Positions 6,568 through 27,076 of a DNA stretch of 58,574 nucleotides are shown here, piece after piece; position 1 is the stretch's first letter, and each line of letters opens with the position of its first letter. This DNA is from an archaeon. Its GTDB lineage: Archaea; Nanobdellota; Nanobdellia; Woesearchaeales; ARS49. The notes under the pieces are model-generated. The model was not told the origin of the DNA, did not search any database, and saw only the letters and a program-made list of their open reading frames with translations. Location: positions 1-58,574 of the forward strand of contig JAGVQG010000017.1 in NCBI GenBank assembly GCA_020051845.1, read 5' to 3'. The translations under genes were made by a program, and so were the position numbers.

Positions 6568-7476
6568 TCACTGGCTTTTCCTGACCCTGATCGCGAAGCG
6601 CAAGACAGGACGCTCGTTGATGCCTGGCAATGCATTACCAATCCTGACCTCATAGGTCGCGACAGCGCCACCATCAACGGCCACGACCTGCGAAACCATG
6701 CCCAAGCCAAGGCTCTTGAGGCAGCTCACCGGCTCGATGTCACCATCGCACTTCCGTATCTCTTCAAGACCTTTCCTCACGGTGTCTGCCGTCGAAAGGA
6801 TGTCATAGACAGAGACGTTGATCGGATGCCTGAAATCGGGCCGCAGAGCGATCTGACCACAGGCATAAACCTGCTGTTCGACACGGGCAGGATTCCAGTC
6901 AAAGACAAACTCGGTCGCTTTGCTCAAGCCTGTGGCAAGGATGTTGATAGGCACGTATTCCCGTTGGGTCCTGCACTTGACAGTCAGAAGAACCGGCCGC
7001 GCAGTGTGACCCTCGATGATCGTCAAGTTCGGTTCGACTGCGCTGTAATAGACGAAATCGCGAGGCCTCTTGTCTCCAAGTATGTACGGGTTCTTCGCCA
7101 GTTGCCGTGTGAAGTGGTCATACTCCATGAAAGAAGAGAGGTCTTGAGAGATGTTCTCCTGCGATGGAAAGCACTCAACCCCGCGATCATACCACAGCGT
7201 CGTCGTGCCAAACTTACCACAGGGCGCCTCGTACCAACCACCATTCCTGAAAAGGTCCATTACCGCATCATAGGACGCGTGCTTGCTCGCGACATCGAAG
7301 TACTGCAAAGCCACCTCGCGGTCGTGCAATCCCTGCAACGCCTCTATCGAACTCTGACCCATGACCAGCTGCTCTTTTCCGACCACTGCCTGGGTGTTGT
7401 TCCAGAGACGCAGCATTATGATCACCAGACCGAGCACGCCAAGAACGAAAGTATACATGAACGCCTTCCTGTTCAT
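6568..7476 (-). CDS. prepilin-like N-terminus protein, 302 aa, no known domain
   Basis: The track start is GTG. The ATG at 7474-7476 is preceded by GGAGGTG and forms an ATGA overlap with the upstream stop. N-terminus MNRKA/FMYTFVLGVLGLVIIML. Confidence 0.65.
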   Translation of the reverse strand: MNRKAFMYTFVLGVLGLVIIMLRLWNNTQAVVGKEQLVMGQSSIEALQGLHDREVALQYFDVASKHASYDAVMDLFRNGGWYEAPCGKFGTTTLWYDRGVECFPSQENISQDLSSFMEYDHFTRQLAKNPYILGDKRPRDFVYYSAVEPNLTIIEGHTARPVLLTVKCRTQREYVPINILATGLSKATEFVFDWNPARVEQQVYACGQIALRPDFRHPINVSVYDILSTADTVRKGLEEIRKCDGDIEPVSCLKSLGLGMVSQVVAVDGGAVATYEVRIGNALPGINERPVLRFAIRVRKSQ

Positions 7477-8195
7477 GATGCACCTCCGCACTTCGCCGAG
7501 TCAACAAGCACATCCCTCGAGAAAGACGCATCATCTACAAAACATAGCGATGCGACACTTGAGACTTCCGAGACGCAGACACGGGCATCACCCTCGCGCT
7601 TTGTGACGCACGGCAGACCCTCCTCGCTCCAGACGCCTGATTGGCCTGAAGGAGACCTGCTCCAATAAACCCAAACCCTACCATCAGCGGTCACGTACTG
7701 CCAGCCGCCCTTCTTGGCGAACTCGCGCACGACATGATCATACTGGTCCTGGGGCGCGCTTCGCACCTCGACCCTGATCTTCGAACCTGAGGATGAAGGC
7801 AGACGAACGCTGTCAAGGACAGGATGGGAATCCTCGGCCATCATCACCTTCCAACCACCATAATCTATGGACAACGTGTTGGCCTTGGCAGATGCCGCCA
7901 TGCGCTGCCGCAGGGCAAGCTGTATGGACGGGAAGACCTTGTCGAATTCGGACTCGACATCGCCCAATGATATCAGAAACGCAAGATCGACATCCTGTCC
8001 CTCGTAGACCACCGGCGTGCGCAGGACGGCAAGAGCCTGTTGACGTTCAGAAATCCCTGTCAACGCCTCCATCTGGATGGTCTGCAGCCTCGGACCAGAG
8101 CAAGACTTGAAGAAAATCACGGCGAACAATATCAAGATGAACATGGCTATCCACGACCAGAATTCAGCTATGGACCAAAGCGCGCCGCGTTTCAT
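7473..8195 (-). CDS. prepilin-like N-terminus protein, 240 aa
   Basis: MKRG/ALWSIAEFWSWIAMFILILFAVIFF. ATGA overlap with the upstream gene. Confidence 0.65.
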   Translation of the reverse strand: MKRGALWSIAEFWSWIAMFILILFAVIFFKSCSGPRLQTIQMEALTGISERQQALAVLRTPVVYEGQDVDLAFLISLGDVESEFDKVFPSIQLALRQRMAASAKANTLSIDYGGWKVMMAEDSHPVLDSVRLPSSSGSKIRVEVRSAPQDQYDHVVREFAKKGGWQYVTADGRVWVYWSRSPSGQSGVWSEEGLPCVTKREGDARVCVSEVSSVASLCFVDDASFSRDVLVDSAKCGGAS

Positions 8196-8704
8196 CGTGC
8201 AGGAGTCACCAGCTCAATGTTCAATATGCCTGGATGATGACCGCCATCCGTCTTTATCGTCACAGGATGGCTGAAGGAGACGGACAACGCCGATCCTGAA
8301 CCGGACTTCGTGGTCAATGGCTTATACAGATCATAGCCATATTTGTTCCAGTAAATCTTGCATGAATGCTTCGTACATGTACCTTCATCGACAAGATCGG
8401 TGAGCACGAACCTCGCGCCCGTGAACTTGTTGTCAGGATGGCTCAACATGGCATCAAGAGTCTTGTCGTTGAACTTGGAGATATCCACGGACAACGGATC
8501 CGACCTGCCTGCGTCCACCACATGGAAACCGCCGGGAGAGTAGATGAAAAGCTGGTCATAGACCGACATCTGGGCAAGGCGCGTGTCAGAAGTCTGCCTG
8601 ACGATCCCCGCGACAAGCACGACCACAAGAACTATGACTATGGCGGTCATCACAGAGTACCTTATCAGCTCAAGCGCGTTGAAAGCCACGGCGCGCCTAT
8701 CCAT
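8192..8704 (-). CDS. prepilin-like N-terminus protein, 170 aa
   Basis: The track start is GTG; I use the ATG at 8702-8704. N-terminus MDRRA/VAFNALELIRYSVMTAIVIVLVVVLV. Confidence 0.6.
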   Translation of the reverse strand: MDRRAVAFNALELIRYSVMTAIVIVLVVVLVAGIVRQTSDTRLAQMSVYDQLFIYSPGGFHVVDAGRSDPLSVDISKFNDKTLDAMLSHPDNKFTGARFVLTDLVDEGTCTKHSCKIYWNKYGYDLYKPLTTKSGSGSALSVSFSHPVTIKTDGGHHPGILNIELVTPAR

Positions 8705-9671
8705 AGTAAACACCCATGCCCGAGTATATCGCCTTGGTGAGAGCGGCCGTGTTGGACAACAGCTGCTGCTTTGCGCCTAGCTGCCCCACAACGATCTCGA
8801 CGCCAGGCCTGTCCGTGGGCAACAGCGTCGGCATCGACGTCGGAGCGACGGCAGAAGCATCGACAAAACCGGTCTCCTGCTGCAATGCATTGACCAATGC
8901 GCAGCCGAGCTTCTCGCTCTTGCGGCGCACATCCTCTGAAGCCTTCGGATTGTAGTATGCGACTATCCTGTTGCGGTCCTCCATCAAAGGATCCACACGC
9001 AATGAGACTACGATACCATCGCCTTTTGCGATGACCTGCTTGCGTTCATCCACCGTGCCTTTCGCTATCTGGCTCTGCGACATCAATGCCTTGAGCCTTC
9101 CAGCGACATCCTCAAGCACGCTCCGCACCACGATGCCGTCCTTCGAGCGATCGTCTGCCGCGATGTCGATGACGTGCCTACCTGCCAAGCCGTTTGGATC
9201 GGCGGTCGGAACAAACTGACAACGCATGATACTCGGGCGGAAATCAGGAGACTTGCGCAGGGTCACGCTGTTTCCCTCTTTCACCACATGGACCAAGCCT
9301 GTTGCGGGCGAAATGCTGAAGGGCTGCAGCGACGTGTCTGCCGGCGTGAAAATCCAGTACCTGCTCGGACCCTTGAGAGTGTTGGCAGTGACCTCGATGA
9401 TGTTCTTGCCGCCCGTGAAAGAGAACTCGGTCTCGCCGTATTTGTTGGCGAAATCCGCCATGATCATGCTGTCCGGACTCTCGGCGACAACAGTGGCGAG
9501 AAGACCGAAATGACCAGGATAGAACTGCTTGGCGAGAAGACCGCCACGGACGGCGCTGTCGATGTAACCGATCAGCAAAACCGTCAACAGCAGACCGCCG
9601 ACGGCCTGCGCCAGCAACCAAATGGTCTCTTCAGAGAGCATCGCTCCACGACGACCCCACCTTCTTTTCAT
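8697..9671 (-). CDS. prepilin-like N-terminus protein, 324 aa
   Basis: MKRRWGRRG/AMLSEETIWLLAQAVGGLLLTVLLIG. A TATA lies about 26 nt upstream of the ATG. Confidence 0.65.
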   Translation of the reverse strand: MKRRWGRRGAMLSEETIWLLAQAVGGLLLTVLLIGYIDSAVRGGLLAKQFYPGHFGLLATVVAESPDSMIMADFANKYGETEFSFTGGKNIIEVTANTLKGPSRYWIFTPADTSLQPFSISPATGLVHVVKEGNSVTLRKSPDFRPSIMRCQFVPTADPNGLAGRHVIDIAADDRSKDGIVVRSVLEDVAGRLKALMSQSQIAKGTVDERKQVIAKGDGIVVSLRVDPLMEDRNRIVAYYNPKASEDVRRKSEKLGCALVNALQQETGFVDASAVAPTSMPTLLPTDRPGVEIVVGQLGAKQQLLSNTAALTKAIYSGMGVYYG

Positions 9672-9713: not shown

Positions 9714-10463
9714 TTAATTGATAGGAGCGGCTGGTTGTGCCGGCTGTGCCGGCGTGGTCGGAGCAGGCGCAGGAGCGACCGGTGTGTTCGGAACGGCTGT
9801 AGGAACAACTGACGCGACCGGCGCCTTGGCCACAACTTTCCTTGACGGCGCCTTGCTGTCGAACACTATCTCCCTGTCCTTCGAGTCGCTCGCGTAAACA
9901 TACATCACGCTCGGAGTCATCGTCGACCAACCTATGCCGCAATCACCATAGACAAGAAGCTCGTTGCCCGTATAGCCTGCAGGTTTCGCCGGGCTTAGGA
10001 AGTTGTCGTTCGCCAGGCCGCGGACGCTCACGCGCTTGATGTTGTTGAAAGACTTGCACGTCGGATAACTTCCCTTGCACTGGCTGCCCTCGACGCACAG
10101 ACATAGGCACGCCCTGCCAGGAAGGCACTCGCCAGGCATGCTCGGACGCTCGACGACATCACCCTTGCACTTGTCCTGCACGCCTCCGCCGTTGGTGGCA
10201 TCGAAACCCACAAGATAGAAACCATCCTCTATGTAGAAATCAGGGAGCGTCCTCGAATCAGGCAACGACGCGACATCGGCACGGTCGAACTCGTCGAGGA
10301 TCAGCATCATCGTGCCCACAGAGATGCGCGTGCCCTGGCCGGCGCTGTCGACGGCGCGCAACGGACCCGAGAAAGTGAAGATGATGTAAAGGACGAGCAG
10401 GGTCATCATTATGCCGATGATCGCCTGGATGAGCTCACCCAAAGAGAGTTCTTCCTCTGCCAT
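9714..10463 (-). CDS. N-terminally anchored protein, 249 aa, Cys-containing ectodomain and Pro/Ala-rich C-terminus
   Basis: I use the internal ATG at 10461-10463, directly after the upstream stop. N-terminus MAEEELSLG/ELIQAIIGIMMTLLVLYIIFTF is atypical (no basic residue). Ends PVAPAPAPTTPAQPAQPAAPIN. Confidence 0.6.
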   Translation of the reverse strand: MAEEELSLGELIQAIIGIMMTLLVLYIIFTFSGPLRAVDSAGQGTRISVGTMMLILDEFDRADVASLPDSRTLPDFYIEDGFYLVGFDATNGGGVQDKCKGDVVERPSMPGECLPGRACLCLCVEGSQCKGSYPTCKSFNNIKRVSVRGLANDNFLSPAKPAGYTGNELLVYGDCGIGWSTMTPSVMYVYASDSKDREIVFDSKAPSRKVVAKAPVASVVPTAVPNTPVAPAPAPTTPAQPAQPAAPIN

Positions 10464-10464
10464 G

Positions 10465-10737
10465 TCACTTCTTCGGCACGCAGCACCAGGTCGCCACGTC
10501 ATCGCTGCCGATCTTCTTCGTGCAACCAAGACCTAGAAGCCCGCGCTCAGTGTTATCGTCGCAACCAGTTTCCCTGCAAACACCGCCCTGTCCTGCACAT
10601 GTGCCTGACACGCCTGCCTGCTCGCCAGGCTTGACGATGTATTTGTACGTGAGGAAAAGAAGGACAGCAAGCACCACAAGGGCCAGCGCCATAACCATAA
10701 TAGTGTTTATCGTGTCACCATCACCGCGCTTGTTCAT
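10465..10737 (-). CDS. 6-Cys mini-pilin-like protein, 90 aa, ends WCCVPKK
   Basis: MNKRG/DGDTINTIMVMALALVVLAVLLFL followed by C-x6-C-x4-C-x12-C-x12-CC. ATGA overlap with the upstream paralogue. Confidence 0.65.
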   Translation of the reverse strand: MNKRGDGDTINTIMVMALALVVLAVLLFLTYKYIVKPGEQAGVSGTCAGQGGVCRETGCDDNTERGLLGLGCTKKIGSDDVATWCCVPKK

Positions 10738-11027
10738 TGGCTCACCACACAGCAATAGAGTTCGTTGTTTTTATCATCTGCATTTAGATTCGGGTCGCCA
10801 GGACAGCCGAACTTGAAAGACTGACCGCTCTTGCACGAGCCGCCATCAATATCATTCTTGCTCATGCAGGTCTGGCCTGGTTTGGTCTCGCAATCACCAA
10901 GCTTCGCGGCGTTCTCACCGCCCTTGAGGATGTATTTGTACGCGAGGAAAAGAAGTATCGCGAGCAGCACCAGCGCGATGATCATCTTCACCAGCGTCTC
11001 CTGCGTCATACCTCTTTTCGATTTCAT
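10734..11027 (-). CDS. 6-Cys mini-pilin-like protein, 97 aa, ends YCCVVSQ
   Basis: MKSKRG/MTQETLVKMIIALVLLAILLFL followed by C-x7-C-x10-C-x9-C-x16-CC. Confidence 0.65.
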   Translation of the reverse strand: MKSKRGMTQETLVKMIIALVLLAILLFLAYKYILKGGENAAKLGDCETKPGQTCMSKNDIDGGSCKSGQSFKFGCPGDPNLNADDKNNELYCCVVSQ

Positions 11028-11060
11028 AGCATCACAACATCGCACGAATCTATATAAGGA

Positions 11061-11738
11061 TTACGTCGGATTGCCGTACTTGAACTTGAGCACGGCGTTG
11101 TTCGAGTCGATTGGAAGCTTCGTGGTACTATTGATGTACAACAGCGGGTCCAGTGGCTGGATATCGATCTGATACCAGCCAGGACCGGGCAACTTGCTGA
11201 TGTTCATGATTTTATCGTTCATCGAGCAAACGCCGCCATCGCAATATCTCGGGTACTCCTGGAAAACACACTCTTTCACGCGCGCGAACTGGAACCACTT
11301 GTCGACGGATTCCGGGCAATACCTTACCCTGACCTGGGGAGGCACTTGCTTATCCGGCGAACGGGACACATACTGATCCCAATAGATGACGATCGGCAAC
11401 ACTTCCACGACATCGAAGTCAACCTCGGCCAATCTCATCATGTTCGTACTCGCCTGGGTCGTCTGTTCGGCTGGATCGACCGCCTTTGTATTCACCTTAT
11501 TCCCACCGGCCATCACATTGTATATCGAAACGAAACCTTTCCGGTTAGGAGTCGCCGGTGCTGTCATGGGAGGGGTCGGATCCGCCTGCTTGAGATGCAG
11601 CCTTGTCGCCACATCATCCGAGGTGCTCTTGGCCATCGCGTACAGCTTGTTATTCGAGAAAATGGCGATCAGCACAAGGATCACCACTACGATAACGCCG
11701 ACCAAAAGAGCCTGGTGTTCAATGCCTCGCTTGTCCAT
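11061..11738 (-). CDS. prepilin-like N-terminus protein, 225 aa
   Basis: The track start is TTG; I use the ATG at 11736-11738. N-terminus MDKRG/IEHQALLVGVIVVVILVLIAIF. Confidence 0.62.
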   Translation of the reverse strand: MDKRGIEHQALLVGVIVVVILVLIAIFSNNKLYAMAKSTSDDVATRLHLKQADPTPPMTAPATPNRKGFVSIYNVMAGGNKVNTKAVDPAEQTTQASTNMMRLAEVDFDVVEVLPIVIYWDQYVSRSPDKQVPPQVRVRYCPESVDKWFQFARVKECVFQEYPRYCDGGVCSMNDKIMNISKLPGPGWYQIDIQPLDPLLYINSTTKLPIDSNNAVLKFKYGNPT

Positions 11739-11875
11739 CAAACACCCATGGCGCCCCTGATCGCGTCAAGGACATCGGGAAACTTACCAGTCACCATACC
11801 TATTATCGCAAGAACAACCAAAAGCACAACAACAAAAAGAATCACGTATCCAAGGTTGTCAGTAATCCAGGTCAT
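11738..11875 (-). CDS. unlisted 45-aa single-TM micro-protein
   Basis: Hand translation gives MTWITDNLGYVILFVVVLLVVLAIIGMVTGKFPDVLDAIRGAMGV. GGAG lies about 6 nt upstream. Its stop overlaps the next ATG (TGATG). It falls below the ORF-track length cutoff. Confidence 0.4.
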   Translation of the reverse strand: MTWITDNLGYVILFVVVLLVVLAIIGMVTGKFPDVLDAIRGAMGV

Positions 11876-11917
11876 GGTCTTCTCCAGTCAGGTTTTGTAT
11901 ATAAATTTATTTTAAAT

Positions 11918-12775
11918 TCAGGTGACGAATTGCAAAGGACCTGCCCTTCCCTCAAGGCGGCTGCACTTCAGCGCAGGTATATCCTCATAGGGCCACAGGA
12001 CCGTGCCTGCGACGAAATTCTGGTTGTAAAAGTGAGGTGAGATGAACATGTTGGTCGTGAATCCTGCTCCGGCTCCTGCGCCGGCCGCTATCACCAAGAA
12101 AGGAGTCGCTGTGCCACCGGTTACGAGGACCGCGCCCGCCGCAAGCGCTGTGCCGCCGGCAGTGATCAGATATCCTGTCCACTTGTCCACGTTCTTCTCC
12201 GCGACGAACATCACGGCGAGCGGTCTGGACGTGTCCAGAGTGTCCTGGCTCGCAATAGGGCTCCTTCGATATTCATCGACGACCTGAGGCGTGCCTTTGG
12301 TGTTGAAAAGATATTCATAATAGGTAGCATCCTTTCCCTTGGCGGTCGTCTTAAGCAGATATTCCCCGAAATCCTCCAGTTTGGCAGGCTTCGTGAACTC
12401 AATGCGAGAGCAGACGACACAATAGGAACCTGTCTCTATGTCGAACAGCTTCACCTTGCCCTCGCCGAACTGCTCCCAGCAAGATGCCATCTCGCTCGCC
12501 ACCAACGCCTTCTGCTTCTCAGGATCGTCCTCGTCAACCTTCATCTGCTTGGTCGTGCAACGCAGGTCGACGACTGTGGTGGGATTGATCATGCCGATAA
12601 GGGACTGGCTGCGCACGCTGGAGACACACTGCTCCTTCTCGCCGACGCTGGTCGAGATCTTCCCTGTCTGCGAGAGGAATATCAGAAGGACCACGCCCGC
12701 GACAAGGATAAGAACTATCCCGAGGATCGTCCCCCACATCGCCTCTTCAGCTTTCTTCGCCATTTTGTCAACCAT
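11918..12775 (-). CDS. 285-aa envelope protein, paralogue of 12782..13639, with an extra Gly/Ala-rich C-terminal TM
   Basis: N-terminus MVDKMAKKA/EEAMWGTILGIVLILVAGVVLLIFL. Shares the block EMAxCW..GEGK...F......CV.C......F..FG.YL.(T).....TY..YL with its neighbour. Confidence 0.65.
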   Translation of the reverse strand: MVDKMAKKAEEAMWGTILGIVLILVAGVVLLIFLSQTGKISTSVGEKEQCVSSVRSQSLIGMINPTTVVDLRCTTKQMKVDEDDPEKQKALVASEMASCWEQFGEGKVKLFDIETGSYCVVCSRIEFTKPAKLEDFGEYLLKTTAKGKDATYYEYLFNTKGTPQVVDEYRRSPIASQDTLDTSRPLAVMFVAEKNVDKWTGYLITAGGTALAAGAVLVTGGTATPFLVIAAGAGAGAGFTTNMFISPHFYNQNFVAGTVLWPYEDIPALKCSRLEGRAGPLQFVT

Positions 12776-12781
12776 CGATAC

Positions 12782-13639
12782 TCAATATAACGTGTCGCAA
12801 GGCGGCCTCAGGTCTGATGGCCAACCATAAACCGCCGCGTTCGGCCTGTCCTTGTAAAACACACTAGTCAGCAGATCAGAGTCACCCTGCAGATATGTTA
12901 TGACCATATCATCCTTGAAAAGATAGATGTCATGGGCGTTCACATTCTCCTCGCGCCCGCCCTGGGTGCGCTCCTCGCCGACGATGTCCTTGTATACATA
13001 GGACATTATCACCGAATCATAGGAGCTGAACTTGGCCTCGAACTTCTCGCGCTCAGGACGCAGATAATCGAAATAGGTCCTACCATCATCCATCTTGGTG
13101 TCCTTCAAGTATTGGCCGAAGCCGTTGAAACCGACACCACCCACCTTCTTGAGGAAGCTCGGGTCGAAGTGCACGACGGCGCAGGTCACGCAGCGATTGC
13201 CGCTGTAGAGCGTGCGCGTCTTGAAAGGATTCTTCTTACCCTCACCCCAAACGCGCCAGCAGATAGCCATCTCCTGCGCCATGGAATATTTGGCCATCTC
13301 CATCAACACCTCGTTCTCAGAGGGCTTCTGGTTGCCCGACTTCTGCAGACGCCTCGCAGCAGTGCCTGTCGACAGGTATTTCTCGGGGGACTTCGTCCTT
13401 ATGCTGTTGCGGTAGACGCCATCATCCTTGATGATGATCATCTGCGTCGGGCACTGGATCGTGACAAGATTGCCTATGGCCGCTGTGCTGGCGGCATCGA
13501 CGGTCGCCTCGCAGGCCTGGATGTCGGTGCCTTTCTTGACCGAAGCCTCCAGGTTGTATTGCCAGGCGAACAATGCTATGGCTGTGACTGCCAAGATGAT
13601 GAGCCCGATAAGGAAAGGATGGACATAGCCCTGCCTCAT
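12782..13639 (-). CDS. 285-aa envelope protein, paralogue of 11918..12775
   Basis: MRQG/YVHPFLIGLIILAVTAIALFA. Shares the Cys/Trp block described for its neighbour. Confidence 0.65.
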   Translation of the reverse strand: MRQGYVHPFLIGLIILAVTAIALFAWQYNLEASVKKGTDIQACEATVDAASTAAIGNLVTIQCPTQMIIIKDDGVYRNSIRTKSPEKYLSTGTAARRLQKSGNQKPSENEVLMEMAKYSMAQEMAICWRVWGEGKKNPFKTRTLYSGNRCVTCAVVHFDPSFLKKVGGVGFNGFGQYLKDTKMDDGRTYFDYLRPEREKFEAKFSSYDSVIMSYVYKDIVGEERTQGGREENVNAHDIYLFKDDMVITYLQGDSDLLTSVFYKDRPNAAVYGWPSDLRPPCDTLY

Positions 13640-13773
13640 CCTGCCACCAACATACCCCTGTTTATCATCATGTAGAACAGGATAATCAGAGCCACGAGCA
13701 GGACCAGCGTGACTATCATGGCGAAAGTCGAACGGGTGATCGCTTTCCTAGACTTGGATACAGCAGATGCCAT
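13636..13773 (-). CDS. possible 45-aa single-TM micro-protein
   Basis: Internal ATG of track ORF 13636..13869 gives MASAVSKSRKA/ITRSTFAMIVTLVLLVALIILFYMMINRGMLVAG. It overlaps the upstream gene by 26 nt and has an ATGA overlap with the downstream gene. Confidence 0.35.
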   Translation of the reverse strand: MASAVSKSRKAITRSTFAMIVTLVLLVALIILFYMMINRGMLVAG

Positions 13774-13999
13774 CTTCAATAGGTGCCTTTCTTCCATCAT
13801 CGCAATTCGGCGATGGGACTGTCGCCGAGTTAGCATTCGGGCAGGGGTTTCCGCGCTTGACGCACTCACCCTTGCACTGGCTAAGGCCCTGCGTGAACAC
13901 CTTGCCGCGCCCCAAGAAGATGATCGTCAGGACCAGCAGCACAATCAAGGCTATGGCTATGACAACGATGACATTAATCGACATATCCCCTTTCCTCAT
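13748..13999 (-). CDS. 6-Cys mini-pilin-like protein, 83 aa, ends ICCIQV
   Basis: MRKG/DMSINVIVVIAIALIVLLVLTIIFLG followed by C-x3-C-x6-C-x12-C-x12-CC. ATGA overlap with the upstream paralogue. Confidence 0.68.
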   Translation of the reverse strand: MRKGDMSINVIVVIAIALIVLLVLTIIFLGRGKVFTQGLSQCKGECVKRGNPCPNANSATVPSPNCDDGRKAPIEDGICCIQV

Positions 14000-14250
14000 T
14001 TGGGAAGCGCACAGCAGGTCTGTGACGCGCCGCCTGAAGTCTTAGGGCACACCCAGATGTTGTACTCGCCGATGCCTGCCGGACACGCGCCGACTACGCA
14101 CTGACCGCCCTGGCCCTCGCAATCCAGGCTCTTCTGTGAGAAGACGCCTGCTCTGCCAAGGAAAATCACCGACAGAACGACAAGCACAAGCAGCGCGATG
14201 GCTGCCACGATGATCACATTGATGGAGATGCCTTGTCCTTTGGAATTCAT
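13996..14250 (-). CDS. 6-Cys mini-pilin-like protein, 84 aa, ends TCCALPK; first gene of the array
   Basis: MNSKG/QGISINVIIVAAIALLVLVVLSVIFLG followed by C-x6-C-x4-C-x11-C-x10-CC. AGAGGTG SD 8 nt upstream. Confidence 0.7.
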   Translation of the reverse strand: MNSKGQGISINVIIVAAIALLVLVVLSVIFLGRAGVFSQKSLDCEGQGGQCVVGACPAGIGEYNIWVCPKTSGGASQTCCALPK

Positions 14251-14292
14251 GATTGAACACCTCTTGCTTATCTTGACTCGGTCGCAGAAGCA

Positions 14293-14300
14293 ATATATAA
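14293..14300 (-). promoter_or_regulatory. TATA box (TTATATAT on minus strand) for the pilin-like array
   Basis: About 46 nt upstream of the 14250 ATG, leaving a short SD-containing leader. Confidence 0.5.
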
Positions 14301-14325
14301 GCTTTCCTGTGAAGGAAACAGGTGC

Positions 14326-14802
14326 TCACGACGAGCCAGGCGCAACCACATCGACAAGCAAGGGGTCGCTGAGGAAAGCCTCCCGCTTGATATCGTCTAT
14401 GACGAAGAAGACCTGCTTTGACTTGATGTCGAACTGGCGCTCGGTCTTGTCCATGAAATCCTCAAGATCGTGCAGATCACGGAATACACAGTCGGCACAG
14501 AAGTCGAAGCCGTTGTTTATCTTGAACAATGAATTCACAGGCAAAGCCTTCGAAAGGTAGTCCCTCAAAGCATCCCTGGACTTGGGATCAGAACGCATCA
14601 GGATGGTGGCTCTCGTGTGGAAACCCAACTTCGAGAAGTCAAGCAGCGCCGTGTTCCTGACGATAAAAGTGCCGGCATAAATCTTCAGCCGGTCATAGAT
14701 CGTCGAGATGGGCACTCGCGCAGACTTGCTCATCGCGGTCAGACCCATCCTCGAGTTCTTCCGCAAATGACTCAACAGCACCAAATCACGTTTGTTTACC
14801 AT
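14326..14802 (-). CDS. Lrp/AsnC-family transcriptional regulator
   Basis: N-terminal HTH (DLVLLSHLRKNSRMGLTAMSKSARVPISTIYDRLK) plus a C-terminal RAM-like domain. GGAGGT SD. Confidence 0.8.
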   Translation of the reverse strand: MVNKRDLVLLSHLRKNSRMGLTAMSKSARVPISTIYDRLKIYAGTFIVRNTALLDFSKLGFHTRATILMRSDPKSRDALRDYLSKALPVNSLFKINNGFDFCADCVFRDLHDLEDFMDKTERQFDIKSKQVFFVIDDIKREAFLSDPLLVDVVAPGSS

Positions 14803-18838: not shown

Positions 18839-19363
18839 TTATTGGCAAAGCTTCAGAACAAGAGTCAGTGTCTGACCGCCTATCGGACGAGGACGCGTTA
18901 TCTTCTGGAAACCTGCCGTGCACCCCCCAGGAGGGTTCTTGAACTCGATCTTCTGGTCGTTGATCTTCTCCTCTATCTCAAATACATACTTTCGGCCCCA
19001 GGTGTTGAGCGTGCTGTTGAGCATGTAGCCTATGGTCGCGTTCGCGTAAGCGCAACTGTCGCCGGCAGGGATGACAATGGTCGCGACACCTGCTTTCGTG
19101 ACCTCGATCTCGTCGCACTGGAAGGAAGCGCCTGTCGCACAGTCCTTGAGCATAACCGAAAGCGGCACGCCCTTGCAGACCATCGTAGTCTCAAGCATCG
19201 TGTCGAGAAGGTTCGCTCCGAGCTGCACGTCACGCGCGTTCTGCACAGGATTCTCCTGCACGTTGAAGAAAAAGAAACGCAATGCGAGAAGGATGCCCAT
19301 CAGCACGATGACCATTATTATCGCAAGCCCGAGAAGCTCCATCTGTGCGCGCCTATTTCGCAT
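18839..19363 (-). CDS. prepilin-like protein, 174 aa
   Basis: MRNRRA/QMELLGLAIIMVIVLMGILLAL. 11-nt overlap with the upstream gene. Confidence 0.68.
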   Translation of the reverse strand: MRNRRAQMELLGLAIIMVIVLMGILLALRFFFFNVQENPVQNARDVQLGANLLDTMLETTMVCKGVPLSVMLKDCATGASFQCDEIEVTKAGVATIVIPAGDSCAYANATIGYMLNSTLNTWGRKYVFEIEEKINDQKIEFKNPPGGCTAGFQKITRPRPIGGQTLTLVLKLCQ

Positions 19364-19880
19364 ATTGAGTCACCTCAATGTAGCCGAAAGCGTAGGTGCC
19401 TTCTGTAGACTGGCTGCCTGTGGCATTGAAAATAAGTATGGGAACCTGCATCTTGCTCGACTCCTTGTATTTAGGCAATGTATTGTTGTAGAGCGTGACC
19501 TGCCTGACGGCTGTCGGTGGAACGGCATTACGAGCGTAGATCTGCGTGACAGTGACCGTACTCCAACCGAAAACAGGGAAGTAAAGCGCGGAGATCGCGG
19601 AAGACTGAGGATTACTGTCATCAAGGACCGACGCGAACGCGCTCAACTTGCTCGCATCTATGCAAGCCTCCTCCTGGATGCCGGCTATGGCGCAATCCAG
19701 CTCTGGAAGGAATGAAATCTTCTGCGCCAGGCCGAACATGTGAAGCTGGCTCGCGCGCGCCAACTCCCTGTTCACCGACGTCTTCTGGATGCCGAAATAG
19801 AAGTTCACGCCGAAGATAAGCAGGAAGGCGAACACCACCATCACGGCTATCGACTCGAAGAGCTTTATCTGGGCTTTCAT
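19353..19880 (-). CDS. prepilin-like protein, 175 aa
   Basis: MKA/QIKLFESIAVMVVFAFLLIFGV. Confidence 0.68.
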   Translation of the reverse strand: MKAQIKLFESIAVMVVFAFLLIFGVNFYFGIQKTSVNRELARASQLHMFGLAQKISFLPELDCAIAGIQEEACIDASKLSAFASVLDDSNPQSSAISALYFPVFGWSTVTVTQIYARNAVPPTAVRQVTLYNNTLPKYKESSKMQVPILIFNATGSQSTEGTYAFGYIEVTQYAK

Positions 19881-19881
19881 C

Positions 19882-20967
19882 TCAGTACACCGTCGGACAA
19901 CTCAGACGCAACAACTTCTCATTGGAGGCGGCAAGGCTGTCCGCCGCTATCTGGAGTATATTGAAGTCAGGGGAGCTTTCGTCGACCACGGTCTTATGGG
20001 CGAACTTGATGATCGTCGGCAAAGGACCGTCATTCGCAGCGTCAAAACCACCCTCCAGATCGTTCGTCTTGGTGATGACCGTGTACTCTGCACCACACGC
20101 GGGGTTTTTTGTGGTGTCTTTCAGTTCGACAGCCCTTTGCTGATACACCCTGCCCACACCCTCAAGACGCTTGAACGCCGTGATTGCATTGCACGAGTAA
20201 TCCTCCATGTCCTGCGCCATTATGGCGCCGAAAAGCATCTCGTCTCCGAAAAACGCAGTCATTATCGTCTGACCACTGTCGTCAACCGCGTTCTCCTTCT
20301 CGATCATGTTCTTGTTCCTCTTGTAGAACGTGAGATCGTTGGTGGAAGCGCTGACAACCACCACGTGGACATCGACGTCCTTGAACTTTGAGTTCATGAC
20401 GGTCTGGATGGCAGGCGCATCATTGCCGAGCGTCACGAAAACCACACGGCTGTATTTCTCGTTGGTCGCGTCCTTGACATCACTGATCTGCTCGAAACGC
20501 ACATCGGCAGGCATCGCCGCCTTTATCCGGTCAAGCACAGGATCGTTGCCGACCAGGTAAATCTTGACGAAATCATTTGTGATGAAGAGGAAGTTGGTGG
20601 CGCGGAAAGGCGCCTTCCAGTCAAGGGTCCAGAGCTTCGCGTCAGCGCCCTCGACGGTGTATGGCGAAAATATGGAACGATCGTTGAACGGGATGCTGAA
20701 GCGGCCGAACTTTATCGAACAAGAACAATCAGCACAATCGAAGTTAAGACCCAGCTTAGGCAAAGGCACTGTCTGGATCGTGTCCTTGGATTGGAGCGCG
20801 GCTGTCGTTATCGCGTCGAAGTCGTTCTGCAGACGTATCGCCGCCTTGTCCGCGGAAAGCTGGCGCTGAGTGTTGGCGACCTTGAAGAAAAGAGCGAGTA
20901 TGACAGCACCTGCTATGAGGACGAAGATCCAGTTGAACTGGACATCAAGCTGTGCCTTGCGCTTCAT
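19882..20967 (-). CDS. prepilin-like protein, about 361 aa
   Basis: [28 protein letters not shown]. The ATG at 20965-20967 forms an ATGA overlap with the upstream stop. An alternative ATG lies 6 nt upstream at 20973. Confidence 0.68.
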   Translation of the reverse strand: MKRKAQLDVQFNWIFVLIAGAVILALFFKVANTQRQLSADKAAIRLQNDFDAITTAALQSKDTIQTVPLPKLGLNFDCADCSCSIKFGRFSIPFNDRSIFSPYTVEGADAKLWTLDWKAPFRATNFLFITNDFVKIYLVGNDPVLDRIKAAMPADVRFEQISDVKDATNEKYSRVVFVTLGNDAPAIQTVMNSKFKDVDVHVVVVSASTNDLTFYKRNKNMIEKENAVDDSGQTIMTAFFGDEMLFGAIMAQDMEDYSCNAITAFKRLEGVGRVYQQRAVELKDTTKNPACGAEYTVITKTNDLEGGFDAANDGPLPTIIKFAHKTVVDESSPDFNILQIAADSLAASNEKLLRLSCPTVY

Positions 20968-21509
20968 TGCCATGGCGATACGCGCACCGCATTACCAAGC
21001 CCCTCAAGCCGCAATACCACCGTGCCTTGGTCGACAGGCTCGCAGAACCAGCGCTGGTCGCTCTGCTTTTCCGGATCGCTCGAAGCCTGGATGTCAGGAA
21101 GCAGTATGTTCTTCGGAGCGCTTGGCTCGAAGAAGACATTGTCGCCGCCGGTCTCATACACCTCATAGATCAGAGAAGCGTTCTCGGGCAGGCCTGCCAG
21201 CTCGGACATCTCATTGAATTGCGGCTTGCCCTTGACATCGACTTGCGGGTCCTTGTTGCCTGTGACGATGCAGATCTTCTTGTACCTCATCGGCAGCCCT
21301 GCGAGCTCGACCTTCTTCACAGAACCATAGCTCAGACTGATGCTCTTGACCTCGGACTTGAGCGTGCTCGTGAAATCGATGAACGCGACCTCGTTGCCGC
21401 GTTGACTGATCCCCTGGATCGCCTTGTATCCATAACCGAGGATCAGCACGAAGATTATACCCGCCAGGATCAGCACGAAAACCTGCCCTATGATCTGCGC
21501 TTTCCTCAT
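20964..21509 (-). CDS. prepilin-like protein, 181 aa
   Basis: [32 protein letters not shown] overlap with the stop of the giant gene. Confidence 0.68.
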
Positions 21510-24500
21510 TTCTTCCCTCCCTTGGGCTTCTGGATGATCTTGTTGAGCTTGACCTGAGCCATGGACTTGCCAGTGGCATAGGCCTCGACCTCGTGCTCGA
21601 GCTGGTCCTTATGCTGAGAATAGTATTTCGCCGTGATGCGCAGCTTCTTGAAAAGCTCCTCCGCATCTTTCGACGAGAGCTTACCAAGGCGCAGCAACCG
21701 CAGCTTCCTGAGCAGATCCTTACGGTCCTTCGCCGACAATTGCGACAGCGCGATGTTGCCCAGGTTCGCAAGGACATCCTCCTTTGTCTCGACCTTATTC
21801 TCATCGACCTTTGAACCTGGCTTGTTCATCCCGAACTCCGCCGCCAGCTTGCCGATCGCGCCCTTCTCTCCGAGCGGGCCTTTAACATGCATATGCTGGC
21901 CCTTGCCATCCTCGGCGATGCGCCTCTCGAGCTCCTTCAACTTGGAGAACTCCTCCTTCTCAGGCGCCTTGAGAGAATCAAGTGAGACGTAATCATCCTG
22001 CTTCTTGGAACCTGCTCCCGGTGTTCCGGCCACTGTCCTCTTCTGCTGCTGACCAATCCGCTGGGCGATGCGCGCACGCGCCTCCTGCAAGCGTTGCATG
22101 AGGTTCGTGGACAAACCACCCTCCTTGGCGGTCTTCTTGAACCTCTCAGGATGCCTCTTCTGGTATTCCTTGTAGCCGAAATAGCCACCCACAAGCAATG
22201 CCAACAAGACTATCAACAATATCCACAGCCAGAGCCAGGAAGTCGGATGGCTTGCCGGATCAAGAGGATCGGTGCCTGCCTCGACCTCGACACCATCATT
22301 GTAACCATCAAGGTCGGTGTCGGCGTTGTTGGGGTCGGTGCCTGCCTGCCATTCCTGCATGTTGGTAAGACCGTCACCGTCAGGATCGGCGTCTGCCGCG
22401 GCATCGCCGGAGCATTCGATCTTGTCGCCGCCGCCCACGAAGCCGTTCTTGAAACGCCAGGAATCAGGTATGTCGTCACCGCAGGAATGACGCTGGTCGA
22501 TCGAACAACCATCGGCGTCGACCTCGGCGCCCTTCGCAGTGCCAGGACACTTGTCCGTACCGTCAGGCACACCGTCGGCGTCACGGTCACCCTCGACACC
22601 GCAGGAAGCGTCGCCGGGCTCGCACTTGCGGCACACGTTGGCCCCACAGACAAGACCCTGGGCGCAGTCAGCGTCGATCAGGCAAGCCTGGCCCTCGATG
22701 CACTTGGAAGAGCAGGCGCCGCCGCAATCGACATCGGACTCTGTGCCGTCATGGACCGAGTTGAAACAGGGATTCGATTGGACGCAAATATTGTTGATGC
22801 AGGTGTTCGACTTGCAGTCCGCGCTCACCAGGCAGGCCTTGCCGATATCACACTTGGTCGAACAGGAGCTACCGCAGTCGACATCGGTCTCATTGCCGTT
22901 ACGCGTACCATCGGCGCAACCGACCGGAGCGCAACGCGAGACATTGCCCGTCTTCTTGCAATTCCTGCTCTTGCAGTCCGTGTTCACCTTGCACAGCTTG
23001 TTGTCGTCGCACTCCATACACTCGGCGCCGCAGTCGATGTCCGTCTCTGTGAACAACTCGAGCGCCTTGTTCTTGCAATGCGACGGAAGCTTGGAGAGGT
23101 TGATGGTCACGCCATTGCTGTCGTTGGCAGGACCCACCATGCCACCCTCGTTCTGCGGCTTTACCGTGAAGAAATAGGAAGCGCCCTCGGTGAGGTTGAG
23201 ATTGCGGCCAAGCTGGTCCTTAGTCAGATAGAACTTGCCACTGTTCGGCAGCCTGCCTTCGCAGTTGCTGTTCGAGGAATTCGTGCCGTTCATGCAGTCG
23301 ACAATGACCTTGCCGCCGGTCTTGTCCTTGACAGTGTAGAAGTACGCCGTGACAGCGGTCTCGTCGTCCTTGCCCTGCCATTCGGCCTGCAGCTTGTCAG
23401 GGAAGTAGCTTATCTCCTTGTCCTCGGACAAGGGCCCGTCGTCACTGACCTTGACCATGTAGGGCGCTGTGTTGTCTATGACAAAAAGGACGGTGATCTT
23501 GGCTGTCTGCGCCTCCTGAATGCCGCCGACATCGATGACCGCAGTGCAAGTGACGTCGATGGCATTCGGGCCAAGAGTCCTATTGACAAAGCGCCTCGTG
23601 TGGCCTATGCCGTCGGCAGAAGCCATCGGATCATAGTTGACTCCTGCGACACATGTGGCCTTCTTGTTGGTCTCGACACCGATATCCACTGTGGTGTTGC
23701 TGAACGCAGACTTTGTCCTACTGACCACGGTGAGCGTCTGGTTGAGGTCCATGGAGACAGAAGTCGCGCCGAAGACCGGGCCAAGAAGCGCCTCGTTGAA
23801 GCAGGCGACAGCGTACCACTGGGTCTGATTGACCTTCTTGAGCACAGCAACGCTGACATTCACGTACACGTTCTGAGATACGGTCGGTGATAGATTGAAG
23901 TTCGGGAACTCATTGGTGAATGTGGCGTAGAAGTCCTGTGCTGCCTTGCCACTGACATTGACCTGCGAAGGGCTGTCTATCTCCCTGTATTTGCAGAATA
24001 TGTTCTCATCACCCTGAACCTCCAATTTGGTCACGAGCTGACCGTCGGTGGTCTGGGTTATGGGATTGGGATTCGTTGTGACAAGCACAAGTTGAGGAGC
24101 GGTCAGATCGACCTTGAGAGAGCACTGCTTCTGGACGGAATTGCCGCTATCATCGTCCTTGCACCAGATGAAGATCGTCTTCGTGCCAGCATCCTCCTTG
24201 ATGCCATCATAATCTTTCTTGAGATGCTCGAAACCGTCAGCCGACTTCGTGGTGGTGTAGAGACCGTTGAAAGGCAATGATGCGCCTGTCGGAAGATCGG
24301 AGAAGCGGCAGTTGGAGGGTTCACTCGTCTCGAAGATCACGTCGAACGGCGATATCTTCGAGGAGACGCCGAAGCGCGGCTGCTTCAGGCCGACAAAAGG
24401 ACTGCCTGCTGATGTCGAGAACTTGCTCGAACCATAGCCCTCGTTCCCTGCAAGGTCCATCGCCTTGGCCGAAAGCATCTTGCGACCACCCTGCAAAGTC

Positions 24501-27076
24501 AAAGGCTTGAGCAGCCACACCTTAGCCGGTGGACCGCTCATAGACAACTGCGTGTCCTGCGGAGCGAAAAGGCCGCAGTTGGTGCCGAAAATCACCCACT
24601 CTGTCAATGTGAGCTGCTTGATCGTCACTGGCTCGCTCGCATTGACGCCCATCGTGATGCCAGACTCATTCGTCTTTGTCCCATCCTTCGGGATAAGCGT
24701 CAGCGACGGAGCGACTGTATCGACGTTGATCGTGATGGGCTGGGGATTGTCCAATGTCGCGCCCTTCGCGTTGGCCGCGTCGAAACCCAAGGTGTAGATG
24801 CCGTCAGGCAAAGGCGCGCTCGGTGATATGGAATAGCTCGTCGCCGAAGCAGTGACGGCAGGATCGGGCGACACCACAAGGCTCACGCCACCCGACGGAC
24901 CGCTCATCGCGGCCTTGGTCAACTTCACAGGCGAGACGAACGTGACAATGATCTTGAGTTGAGGAGCGCCGGACCTGCCACTGCCTGCGTTGGTGTACCA
25001 GGGGCCCTTATCCGGATACTGGGTTCCTGGCGAGACATTGATGCCCTTGATCGTCGGACCAAGGCAGCCCTCGCAGATCAGCAACGGGATGGTCCTGACA
25101 ACCTCCACATTGTAGCTCGGATCCTCGGTATAGTAACGAAGTTCATACTGGCCCTCGGTGAGATTGAATAATGTCGTGTCATCCTGGGCAGGATCATCGA
25201 CCACACCATCACCCATGCAAAGCAGGTTGTAGCCGGTCGACTTCCAACCGCTCTTGTCATCACGCACGCGGGCGTCTGTGCAATCCGTCGTGTCGCCCTT
25301 CGGACGCACGCAATACCACGTCAAATAATTATCCTTGAACATCGAACCGTCGCCGCACTCGATCTGCGCGGACTGATCCAAAGGCTTGCCCTGAACCGCG
25401 ACAGGCGACGCAGGAAGCACGCCGGAAATCTTGTCGACAAGGCGCGCCACTATGAAACTCGTCACGCCAGACTTGGTCTTCGACGTCAAAGCCGTCTGCG
25501 GCGGGTAGTAATCCTGCTCGCAGGCCTTCTGCAAAAGCGCCGTGCTCGCGCCAAGGCAATCCGCAAAGGTCGCACCATTCGGCCTGCCGTCCGCGTTCTT
25601 GTGACATGCGCCGTTTATCCAGTCGCACACAGGGATCTTGCAGATGTTGGACGTGCTCATCCTTGAAAGTGAATTGTCGGCGTTGATCGCGATGCCGCCC
25701 GCAGGACCGCCGCAATCAGGCTCCTTCGGGAAGATAGAACAATCAGCCTCGGCACAGCTCTTCGCGCTATCCAGCTCAGGGGTAGGACCTGGCACGAAGA
25801 AGCACATGTTGTCCTGGGTCGAGAGAGCTGACGCGACCTCGGGCGAGCATTTGTTGAACACATCATTGTAGGCGTCCTTGTTGGGCGCATTCTTGCTACC
25901 AGCCATGTTGCAAAGCGCGCAATTGCTCGACGTGGAATCCTTGCAGACGCCTACACCGAGACCCTCAAGACCAGGCACAGGGGACCAGGCACAGGTGCCC
26001 TTCAGACCGCATGGGTTCTTTCCGCACACGCGGCTCGACTTGTAATCATAGCACACCATCGACCCGTCGCACTTGTAGCATTCATCGCCAGAAGCTGATC
26101 CGCGGTCGAGGAAGCAATAGGTCGGAGTATCGACAGGACCCTCACAATTCTGTTCGTTGATGTTCAAGCCGAAGACGTCGCTCGACGCGGGCTTGCATTC
26201 GGAAGGCACGATGCATTTCACCGCCTCTGCGCCGCGCTTGAAACACTGTTTGTCAGGAGGACACTGCAAACCCTTGACCACGATGTTGAACGGATTGCAC
26301 GATATCGCGCCATTAAGCCTGTCGGAGAAAGCCAACTTCACGGCAGAATCATAGTCCTTGTTGAAAGTCACATCCTTGCCATAGGAATCCTTGTAGCCCT
26401 TGTCGACCAAGTAATTCTTGCGCTTGTCGTTGTCGAAATGCGCGGGCGAGAGGCAGAACTCCTGCTCGTCGAAGACATCAAGGCACTCGATGTCACCAAG
26501 CATGCCCTGGCCAGACACATCATTCGACCAGCCCTGGATGTAATGCGCCTTGACCTTGTAGATGTACTTCGTCTTCCAAAGCACGATCCTCTTGCCAGCA
26601 GTATCAAGACCAGAATCCTCAAAGTAAGAGTTAGTGGTATCGCCGATCTCCAAACAGTTGCTTCCTGCGATATCACAACGCGTGACACGCACATAATCAG
26701 GAGAACAGCTCGCGTCACCGGGTGACCACTCGATGCGCATGATGTCCTTGCCCTTGACGCCACGCACGCGCACGTCCTTGACATCGGGCTTTCCTGCCGC
26801 ACAGGCAGGAAGCGTGGGAGATATCGACTGGCAAAGCGTGATGCAGTCATCGCCGATCTTCTCCGGCGTGGCTATGTCAGGATAATTCACGCAGTCGCCG
26901 GTGCCGCACTCGCCAGCAGGCCTGAAAGCGTCGCTGCACGCCGAGCTCGACTGAGCATTGCAGCAGCAGACAGGACCATCAGTGGTCTGCGCAGACGCAG
27001 GAACGACGAGGAGCGCGACAAGCGCGATCACCAGCAGGAAGCCGAGCTCAATTGAGCGGCAAGAGCGACTTGGCAA
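21506..27076 (-). CDS. giant (1856 aa) Cys-rich type-I membrane surface protein / putative adhesin
   Basis: TTG start 7 nt after GGAGGTG, with no in-frame ATG before the signal peptide ([22 protein letters not shown]). FN3/Ig-like segments with D-x-T/V-A-P linkers ([23 protein letters not shown]). Three Cys modules, Asp-rich TSP3-like repeats, [25 protein letters not shown] and a 221-aa Lys/Glu-rich tail. Confidence 0.85.
22241..22600 (-). repeat. Asp-rich thrombospondin-type-3-like (Ca-binding) repeats encoded just outside the TM segment
   Basis: [61 protein letters not shown]. Confidence 0.6.
22601..23077 (-). repeat. three tandem ~45-50 aa Cys-rich modules (protein-level repeat)
   Basis: [31 protein letters not shown] / [32 protein letters not shown] / [33 protein letters not shown]. 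Confidence 0.7.

Follow-up and report, generated by a model that had tools for sequence, protein, structure and literature searches.

Contig JAGVQG010000017.1 of assembly GCA_020051845.1, a stretch of 58,574 nucleotides that is called the window here at its whole length, carries on its minus strand four very small genes, each encoding a prepilin-like N-terminus and hydrophobic helix followed by a short head with six cysteines. Following the order of the genes, we labeled these mini-pilin-like genes as types A through D. The type A gene (13996..14250; 84 aa) is the first gene of its operon, and its product starts with MNSKG/QGISINVII (the slash marks the putative cleavage site here and below) and has the head C-x6-C-x4-C-x11-C-x10-CC-ALPK; type B (13748..13999; 83 aa) starts with MRKG/DMSINVIV and has the head C-x3-C-x6-C-x12-C-x12-CC-IQV; type C (10734..11027; 97 aa) starts with MKSKRG/MTQETLV and has the head C-x7-C-x10-C-x9-C-x16-CC-VVSQ; and type D (10465..10737; 90 aa) starts with MNKRG/DGDTINTIM and has the head C-x6-C-x4-C-x12-C-x12-CC-VPKK. 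In both pairs, A/B and C/D, the ATG of the downstream gene overlaps the TGA of the upstream gene (ATGA, stop on start). An earlier examination of the bare letters, referred to below as the sequence-only reading, had placed the four open reading frames (ORFs) at these minus-strand positions and had assigned to each exactly six cysteines with these spacings and a terminal CC, all of which we found again; the tail after the CC doublet, which it had given as 4–5 residues, is actually 3–4 residues long. For the second pair, longer TTG or GTG starts are also possible in the ORF listing, and the public gene call for the 97-aa type C protein (P0002) begins later, at MTQE (91 aa); the ATG starts, which had also been chosen in the sequence-only reading, are favored because the homologues begin with MKSKRGMTQE and MNKRGDG.

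A profile built from the four paralogues retrieved 488 proteins at E≤0.01 in a word-indexed search, and 114 of the 120 best matches have exactly six cysteines. With a hidden Markov model (HMM) of 119 sequences, the exhaustive search reached 4,187 clusters at 50% identity, each counted by one representative, at the threshold E≤1e-3 and 1,660 at E≤1e-10; almost all of these proteins are 80–100 aa in length. The layout C-x(2-9)-C-x(2-12)-C-x(6-24)-C-x(3-20)-CC, ending at most 12 residues from the C-terminus, is kept in 249 of 259 retrieved family members, and all six cysteines are invariant columns in the 119-sequence alignment. A C1–C2 spacing of 6 dominates across the family, and the second Cys is preceded at a distance of two residues by Gly (G-x-C2) in 234 of the 249 heads, G49 being nearly invariant. 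The sequence-only reading had made its proposal depend on conservation of the cysteine pattern in homologues, and this conservation is clear. The six-Cys pattern is far beyond chance, spurious ORFs are ruled out by the conservation, and the four genes are real, conserved members of a very large unannotated family.

All genome matches of the family belong to metagenome-assembled genomes (MAGs) of Woesearchaeota, Nanoarchaeota, Pacearchaeota, or Nanobdellota, that is, of DPANN archaea, and a search of viral contigs in IMG/VR found no relatives. The listed matches have no Pfam domain on record and are named only "hypothetical protein" or "uncharacterized membrane protein." Type A homologues with 60–86% identity occur in many DPANN MAGs; type B orthologues occupy the second slot in two related loci (L001 and L002) and are also present among public gene calls (P0052, P0058, and P0062); six close homologues were found for type C and eight for type D. 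The archaeal origin of the window is evident from its genes for RadA, RPA with DUF2240, eRF1, PheRS, RNase P p30, RFC, and Fen1; scanning the window for Rfam families and tRNAs gave nothing. We also noticed that many MAGs with the locus that are marked TPA_asm (L013, L016, L018, L020, L021, and others) are titled "uncultured Methanosarcinales archaeon," a label that is probably generic or mis-assigned; the 969-kb contig CAZJXP010000001.1 bears this title, yet has synteny as in Woesearchaeota MAGs.

The N-terminal logo of 239 members reads M-N-K-K-[A/G]-Q-G-[I/L/M]-S-[I/M/L]-N-V-I-I-[I/V]-A-A-I-A-L-L-V-L-V-V-L-S-V-I-F-x-G-R-x-G-x-F; logo position −4 is K or R in 234 members and position −3 is A or G in 224, the residue after the putative cleavage site (logo position −2) is Gln in 220, and 26 hydrophobic positions follow. 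The leaders in the window (SKG/QGISINV in A, RKG/DMSINV in B, KRG/MTQETLV in C, and KRG/DGDTINT in D) all fit the basic-leader-plus-helix form, with [KR]-[GA] followed by a hydrophobic helix of about 26 residues, in agreement with the prepilin-like N-termini described in the sequence-only reading. Pilin processing by EppA, the pilin-specific peptidase of Methanococcus maripaludis, requires the +1 Gln (PMC4390842). Judged from these residues, the N-terminus fits an archaeal class III (prepilin) signal, with type A having Gln at +1 as in EppA substrates. A Sec signal peptide was rejected, the hydrophobic region of about 26 residues being too long. The helix is conserved at each residue and more strongly than the head, also when the compared sequences represent different 50%-identity clusters, as is expected of a polymerization helix and not of a leader peptide or a simple anchor. 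The Pfam and NCBIfam matches to DUF948, Asp4, claudin, and others that were obtained for the four proteins and the operon were set aside as transmembrane-helix noise.

The AlphaFold2 (AF2) model of type A, which was built with 119 homologues, has a mean predicted local distance difference test (pLDDT) value of 79, with 95 in the helix; it consists of a helix at residues 6–41 and a small three-stranded head (strands 50–52, 61–63, and 78–81), and thus gives the helix-plus-knob arrangement that the sequence-only reading had expected. When the model was compared with the PDB by Foldseek, beta-defensins occupied ranks 1–11 and 13 (hBD1 variants, hBD3, AvBD3, and hBD2), and rank 12 was the sea-anemone toxin ShI; the target-normalized TM-scores of the defensin matches are 0.52–0.65 with root-mean-square deviations of 1.8–3.2 Å and identities of 25–30%, and none is significant (best E 0.33, best probability 0.77). 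At the sequence level, the only Pfam match of the type A head domain is Defensin_beta, with 16 bits and E 0.012, which is below the 21-bit gathering cut-off, and types B, C, and D have no match to this family in the Pfam scan. Among the 119 family members, 51 match Defensin_beta at E≤1 (best E 3e-5); P0226 reaches 21.5 bits over profile positions 3–36 of 36, and P0027 and P0041 reach 20.7. The PDB profile search placed gallinacin-11 at the top and also listed crotamine and a carboxypeptidase inhibitor, none of them significantly. Weak Defensin_big matches in four family members (best E 0.13) are not significant.

We further compared the heads with 13 manually entered reference beta-defensin sequences, which were used for the hhalign, HMM, spacing, and charge comparisons. 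Alignment by hhalign of 78 type-A-like heads with these references gave a probability of 66.6% and a pairwise P of 5.4e-5 with all six cysteines aligned, the common consensus being C..kGG.C....Cp; with all family heads pooled, the probability is only 5.7%. Real type A heads score a mean of 10.5 bits against the defensin HMM, whereas the value for sequences shuffled with fixed Cys positions is −1.0±3.6, and only 1.2% of the shuffles reach the real median; the likeness of type A therefore exceeds the Cys framework. These values should be read together with the facts that the family sequences in the comparisons are related to one another and that every database-corrected statistic is borderline. 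Against the spacing of about C-x6-C-x4-C-x9-C-x6-CC in these references, types A and D match in C1–C2 (6), C2–C3 (4), and roughly C3–C4 (11–12), and their C4–C5 loop of 10–12 is longer; the fit is poorer for types B (3/6/12/12) and C (7/10/9/16). Types A and D also have the motif C-x3-GG-x-C in common. The head-only AF2 model of type C has three strands and a short helix (pLDDT 75.6), and Foldseek gave no defensin or other meaningful match for it. Overall, there is reasonable support for a defensin-like head in types A and D and none in type C. The sequence-only reading had called the resemblance to defensins superficial and had ascribed it to convergence; the first view needs revision for type A, and by sequence also for D, where the likeness is stronger than superficial, while convergence may still explain it, since the type A statistics are borderline even with scores about 11 bits beyond the Cys-fixed shuffles.

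The operon that begins with type A follows a candidate AsnC/Lrp-type regulator gene (14326..14802, minus), which matches Pfam AsnC_trans_reg at E 0.0012, below the cut-off; matches to the same family lie at the corresponding position in six related loci (L001–L004, L008, and L009). Within the 75-nt gap after this gene and ahead of ATG 14250, we read a putative archaeal promoter and ribosome-binding site (14258..14307, minus), composed of a BRE/TATA-like element (B recognition element and TATA box), GGAAAGC-TTATATAT, at 14307–14293 and a Shine–Dalgarno (SD) sequence, AGAGGTG, at 14264–14258. The position of the first pair at the operon start with a strong SD, as noted in the sequence-only reading, is borne out by these elements. 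Another short element, CCTTATATAG, lies inside the operon at 11051–11060 (minus), upstream of the type C ATG (11027) by only some 25 nt, and may be an internal promoter yielding a leaderless transcript for the second pair.

Following the first pair, with overlaps into the end of type B and into the start of the gene after it, there is a "headless" ORF of 45 aa (13636..13773, minus; MASAVSKSRKA/ITRSTFAMIVTLVLLVALIILFYMMINRGMLVAG), which has a class-III-like signal and a hydrophobic helix only; ORFs of 35–57 aa are found in the corresponding slot of four related loci (L001, L003, L006, and L008), and this product could be a Flp/EpdE-like subunit. The next two genes of the minus strand encode paralogous proteins of 285 aa: that at 12782..13639 starts with MRQG/YVHPFLIGLIIL, has six Cys and a CW-x2-W-GEG motif, and has counterparts in L001 and L003; that at 11918..12775 has an N-terminal hydrophobic helix and six Cys. 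Two proteins of about 240–310 aa follow the first mini pair in the window (11918–13639, minus), in L001 (10913–12384), and in L003 (10966–12602); all have six Cys and most share a CW-x2-[WF]-GEG-type motif. A 226-aa protein (11061..11741, minus; MDKRG/IEHQALLVGVIVVV) precedes the second pair. Directly after the type D stop, the ATG of a Cys-rich protein of about 249 aa follows (9714..10463, minus; start MAEEELSLGELIQAIIGIMMTLLVL), which has a Pro/Ala-rich tail. Four further operon proteins of 324, 173, 240, and 307 aa are encoded at 6568..9671 (minus) and have size-matched counterparts in L001–L004; three of them have [KR]-[GA] and a helix (RRGA/MLSEE, KRGA/LWSIAEF, and NRKA/FMYTF), and the 173-aa protein, which starts with MDRRAVAF, is a poorer fit.

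Nearly all products of this operon, from 14250 to about 6568 on the minus strand, therefore open in one manner despite unrelated sequences, with M-x(0-8)-[KR]-[GA] and a hydrophobic helix (further examples of starts are MRQG/YVHPF and MDKRG/IEHQ), and the class-III-like N-termini are shared by the operon products of three other genomes (L001–L003). In a crude count over 89 loci with a family gene, class-III-like N-termini were found in 965 of 5234 same-strand ORFs vs. 154 of 7192 opposite-strand ORFs. The operon proteins other than the minis have no Pfam, NCBIfam, or PDB sequence match, and the PDB searches with three larger ones returned noise only. Related operons (L002, 5689–6678; L003, 12742–13528) also encode small Cys-rich class-III-signal proteins with other Cys patterns, such as a 77-aa protein ending with YCCQNGIVDKPC and proteins of 118–159 aa with 8–12 Cys, which indicates that the design of a helix plus a Cys knob has diversified well beyond types A–D.

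Upstream of the mini-pilin operon, a companion surface-protein cluster (18839..28442, minus) encodes a giant TSP3-repeat protein of 1856 aa with 87 Cys and five proteins with [KR]-[AG]/Q starts and hydrophobic helices (464, 181, 363, 175, and 174 aa), one upstream and four downstream of the giant protein; this cluster is also found upstream of the operon in L001, L003, L008, and a 397-kb JGI contig. Between the two clusters, three candidate regulatory genes keep their position across genomes: the AsnC-type gene, a gene for a 304-aa protein (14954–15868, plus) whose L003 counterpart has weak PhoU and MazE/AbrB matches, and a gene for a 981-aa membrane protein (15828–18773, minus) whose L001 and L003 counterparts carry a Pkinase domain. 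The syntenic order found in divergent genomes is the giant-protein cluster, the kinase-type membrane protein, the PhoU/AbrB-like protein, the AsnC-type regulator, two or three six-Cys minis, the headless mini, the larger class-III-signal proteins, and then RPA, YdjM, and RadA. Beyond the companion cluster (28439–32913, minus), the window also encodes two very Cys-rich proteins with Sec-type signals, one of 514 aa with 19 Cys and the other of 984 aa with 42 Cys, neither of which has a Pfam match.

On the basis of these observations, we consider it fairly probable that the four genes encode type-IV-pilin-like subunits of a filament or a surface assembly, belonging to a family specific to Woesearchaeota and Nanoarchaeota, with the assembly machinery encoded elsewhere in the genome. 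The conservation of the gene order across divergent genomes, with two or three minis, a headless protein of 35–57 aa, and larger proteins, supports this reading, and neutral or anionic heads suit a surface with a structural or adhesive role better than they would suit a cationic antimicrobial. The steps that we propose are drawn from sequence features and would be as follows. The precursor would be inserted into the membrane by its N-terminal hydrophobic helix, and a FlaK/EppA-type signal peptidase of class III, encoded elsewhere, would cut the basic leader of 3–6 residues after [KR]-[GA], leaving type A with Gln at +1. An ATPase and a platform protein of the FlaI/FlaJ type, also encoded elsewhere, would then polymerize the subunits into a thin filament whose core would be made of the invariant helices (AAIALLVLVVL) and whose surface would be covered by the heads of 42–55 residues, presumably locked by three disulfides. 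Type A is the best candidate for the main subunit because its gene leads the operon, its promoter and SD are the best ones, and no other type is as conserved or as widespread; types B–D, along with the larger operon products that have class III signals, would be minor, tip, or alternative subunits. The filament would probably serve in adhesion or host contact of these episymbiont-type archaea together with the neighboring cluster, whose giant Cys-rich proteins are candidate adhesins, and the AsnC-type, PhoU/AbrB-like, and kinase-type genes are candidate regulators. Signal cleavage, disulfide formation, polymerization, and function are all inferred here from the sequences.

Several results weigh against this pilus reading. 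Among nearly all large ORFs of the 58.6-kb window, a few small ORFs near 55–58 kb being unscanned, the Pfam search found no assembly ATPase, platform protein, or A24-type peptidase, and for the 10 kb on either side of the family gene in the 89 loci, scans limited to the Walker A/B and GxGD motifs likewise turned up no ATPase of the T2SSE/FlaI type, no FlaJ/TadC platform, and no A24-type peptidase. No pilin or archaellin HMM of Pfam or NCBIfam matched the window proteins or 119 family members significantly at thresholds of E≤0.1 to 1, the sole pilin match being ComGC at E 0.2, and the PDB profile search found no solved pilin. Only type A has Gln at +1 in the window, the corresponding residues of types B, C, and D being D, M, and D. 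The choice of type A as the main subunit has a competitor as well, the headless 45-aa ORF, because the major pilin EpdE of Methanococcus is without a globular head. As to published genomes, the reports are divided: a preprint describes DPANN as lacking components of the type IV pilus (10.1101/2020.05.14.094862); in favor of the pilus reading, homologues of flaI, flaJ, and flaK have been reported in Woesearchaeota genomes, including most MAGs of one survey (PMC5994134, PMC11606122), and a 2026 survey reported type-4-filament system 1, which is Epd-like, in DPANN (bioRxiv 10.64898/2026.04.22.720090).

The absence of linked assembly genes in the 89 loci and of homology to known pilins would also be explained if the minis were displayed on the cell surface without polymerizing into a long fiber, the helix acting as a permanent anchor with the N-terminus inside and the C-terminus outside, or as part of a short pseudopilus- or bindosome-like assembly, and the Cys knob acting as a ligand or an adhesion module. 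Class III signals are also carried by archaeal surface proteins that are not pili, e.g., the sugar-binding proteins of Sulfolobus, and the co-encoding of many different class-III-signal proteins recalls systems of the pseudopilus type. However, the conservation of the helix and of [KR]-[AG]-Q at the residue level is hard to explain for a plain anchor, the type A gene opens the operon and is preceded by a canonical TATA box and SD, and tandem paralogues are typical of pilin sets; we therefore regard surface display as possible though rather unlikely.

The defensin-like heads require separate consideration. Vertebrate beta-defensins, crotamine among them (Pfam PF00711, trans-defensin fold), share with the A and D heads the Cys order C-C-C-C-CC, the C1–C2 spacing of 6, the C2–C3 spacing of 4, and G-x-C2, and share with type A the three-stranded sheet predicted for it; they differ in a shorter C4–C5 loop (about 6 vs. 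10–12), in being cationic while the heads are anionic, and in having a Sec signal and a propeptide and occurring in animals, whereas the six-Cys heads follow a prepilin-type helix and occur in archaea. Big defensins (Pfam PF14862) resemble the minis in being bipartite, hydrophobic at the N-terminus and beta-defensin-like in the C-terminal domain; their N-domain is, however, a globular hydrophobic domain and not a transmembrane or pilin helix, and they are secreted animal peptides, unlike the minis. That the type A and D heads are true homologues of the animal beta-defensin/big-defensin (trans-defensin) domain, used as the knob of an archaeal pilin on the surface of a host-contact filament, appears doubtful to us.

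A secreted or released effector of the defensin kind, whether antimicrobial, active on host membranes, or toxin-like, with the helix as an export signal or an anchor before release, would account for the Defensin_beta matches with P0226 over the 21-bit cut-off, for the top rank of gallinacin-11, for the 12 beta-defensin chains and one sea-anemone toxin among the top 13 Foldseek matches, and for the hhalign result with its six aligned Cys. It is nevertheless very improbable in view of the charge of the heads (mean −2.1, range −10 to +2 in 249 members; −1, 0, −3, and 0 for A–D in the window), which is anionic to neutral vs. cationic in the comparison beta-defensins and led us to reject a cationic antimicrobial peptide; moreover, conservation is strongest in the "leader," contrary to what precursors of secreted peptides show, the locus is a core syntenic one by housekeeping genes in every genome and not a variable toxin/immunity cassette, and no maturation protease or transporter is encoded nearby. 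Least likely of all is a membrane helix that carries a small module for metal binding or redox activity, with the six Cys holding Zn or an Fe-S cluster instead of forming disulfides, which the six invariant Cys within about 40 residues, the very Cys-rich neighboring extracellular proteins, and the description of Woesearchaeota as anaerobes (PMC5994134) might suggest, but against which stand the match of the framework and the G-x-C motif to a disulfide-rich fold, a layout that reads unlike the ferredoxin CxxCxxCxxxCP or the CxxC pairs of zinc ribbons, the absence of any outstanding metal-binding Pfam family, a predicted topology with the domain outside the cell, and the compact defensin-like beta-sheet into which AF2 folds the head.

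For the reading as pilin-like subunits, the closest known system in working principle is, by analogy, the Epd pilus of Methanococcus. The EppA-processed EpdA–E proteins of M. maripaludis (system 1) resemble the minis in the short basic leader ending with [KR]-G/A and in the +1 Gln of type A, as well as in very small subunits, multi-gene clusters of pilin-like proteins, and the location of some pilins away from the ATPase and platform genes. They differ in that no sequence homology is detectable, in that the major Epd pilin is headless while a six-Cys knob is present here, and in that a peptidase and assembly machinery are encoded within the Epd cluster, whereas none was found linked to the minis in the 89 loci. 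Bacterial Flp/Tad pilins and mini-pilins such as Geobacter PilA are likewise shorter than 100 residues, dominated by the N-terminal helix, and encoded as tandem paralogues, but they have essentially no head or disulfide knot, carry the signal G/xxxxEY or G/F with E5, and depend on bacterial machineries. Type IV pilins that contain disulfides (the D-region of bacterial T4a pilins and the Pyrobaculum-type archaeal pilin) share the use of Cys for stabilizing the exposed part of the pilin; they have one or two disulfides in an alpha/beta head of 100–150 residues, whereas the whole head of the minis is a module of about 45 residues of the three-disulfide type. The sequence-only reading had stated that it knew of no such pilin class, and we likewise found no matching pilin family in Pfam or NCBIfam and, in the literature, no description of Cys-rich or defensin-like archaeal pilins or of a six-Cys mini family.

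Woesearchaeota and related DPANN archaea are abundant, uncultivated, and thought to be attached to hosts, and papers disagree on whether they have pili. A family of at least 4,187 clusters at 50% identity that has no Pfam or NCBIfam model, and that stands first in a syntenic island of at least 12 prepilin-type proteins, offers a concrete candidate for the subunit of such a filament. The family is pilin-like, large, restricted to one lineage, and without annotation, and its head is unusual and partly beta-defensin-like. Flp mini-pilins and pilins with one or two disulfides are already known, and a pilin whose whole head is a knob of about 45 residues of the triple-disulfide type would show type IV filaments to be built in a structurally new way. 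The near-threshold beta-defensin matches pose the question of whether the trans-defensin fold is older than animals or has been reinvented; if the type A and D heads are true homologues, this fold, which has been described in animals alone, would also exist in an ancient prokaryotic form.

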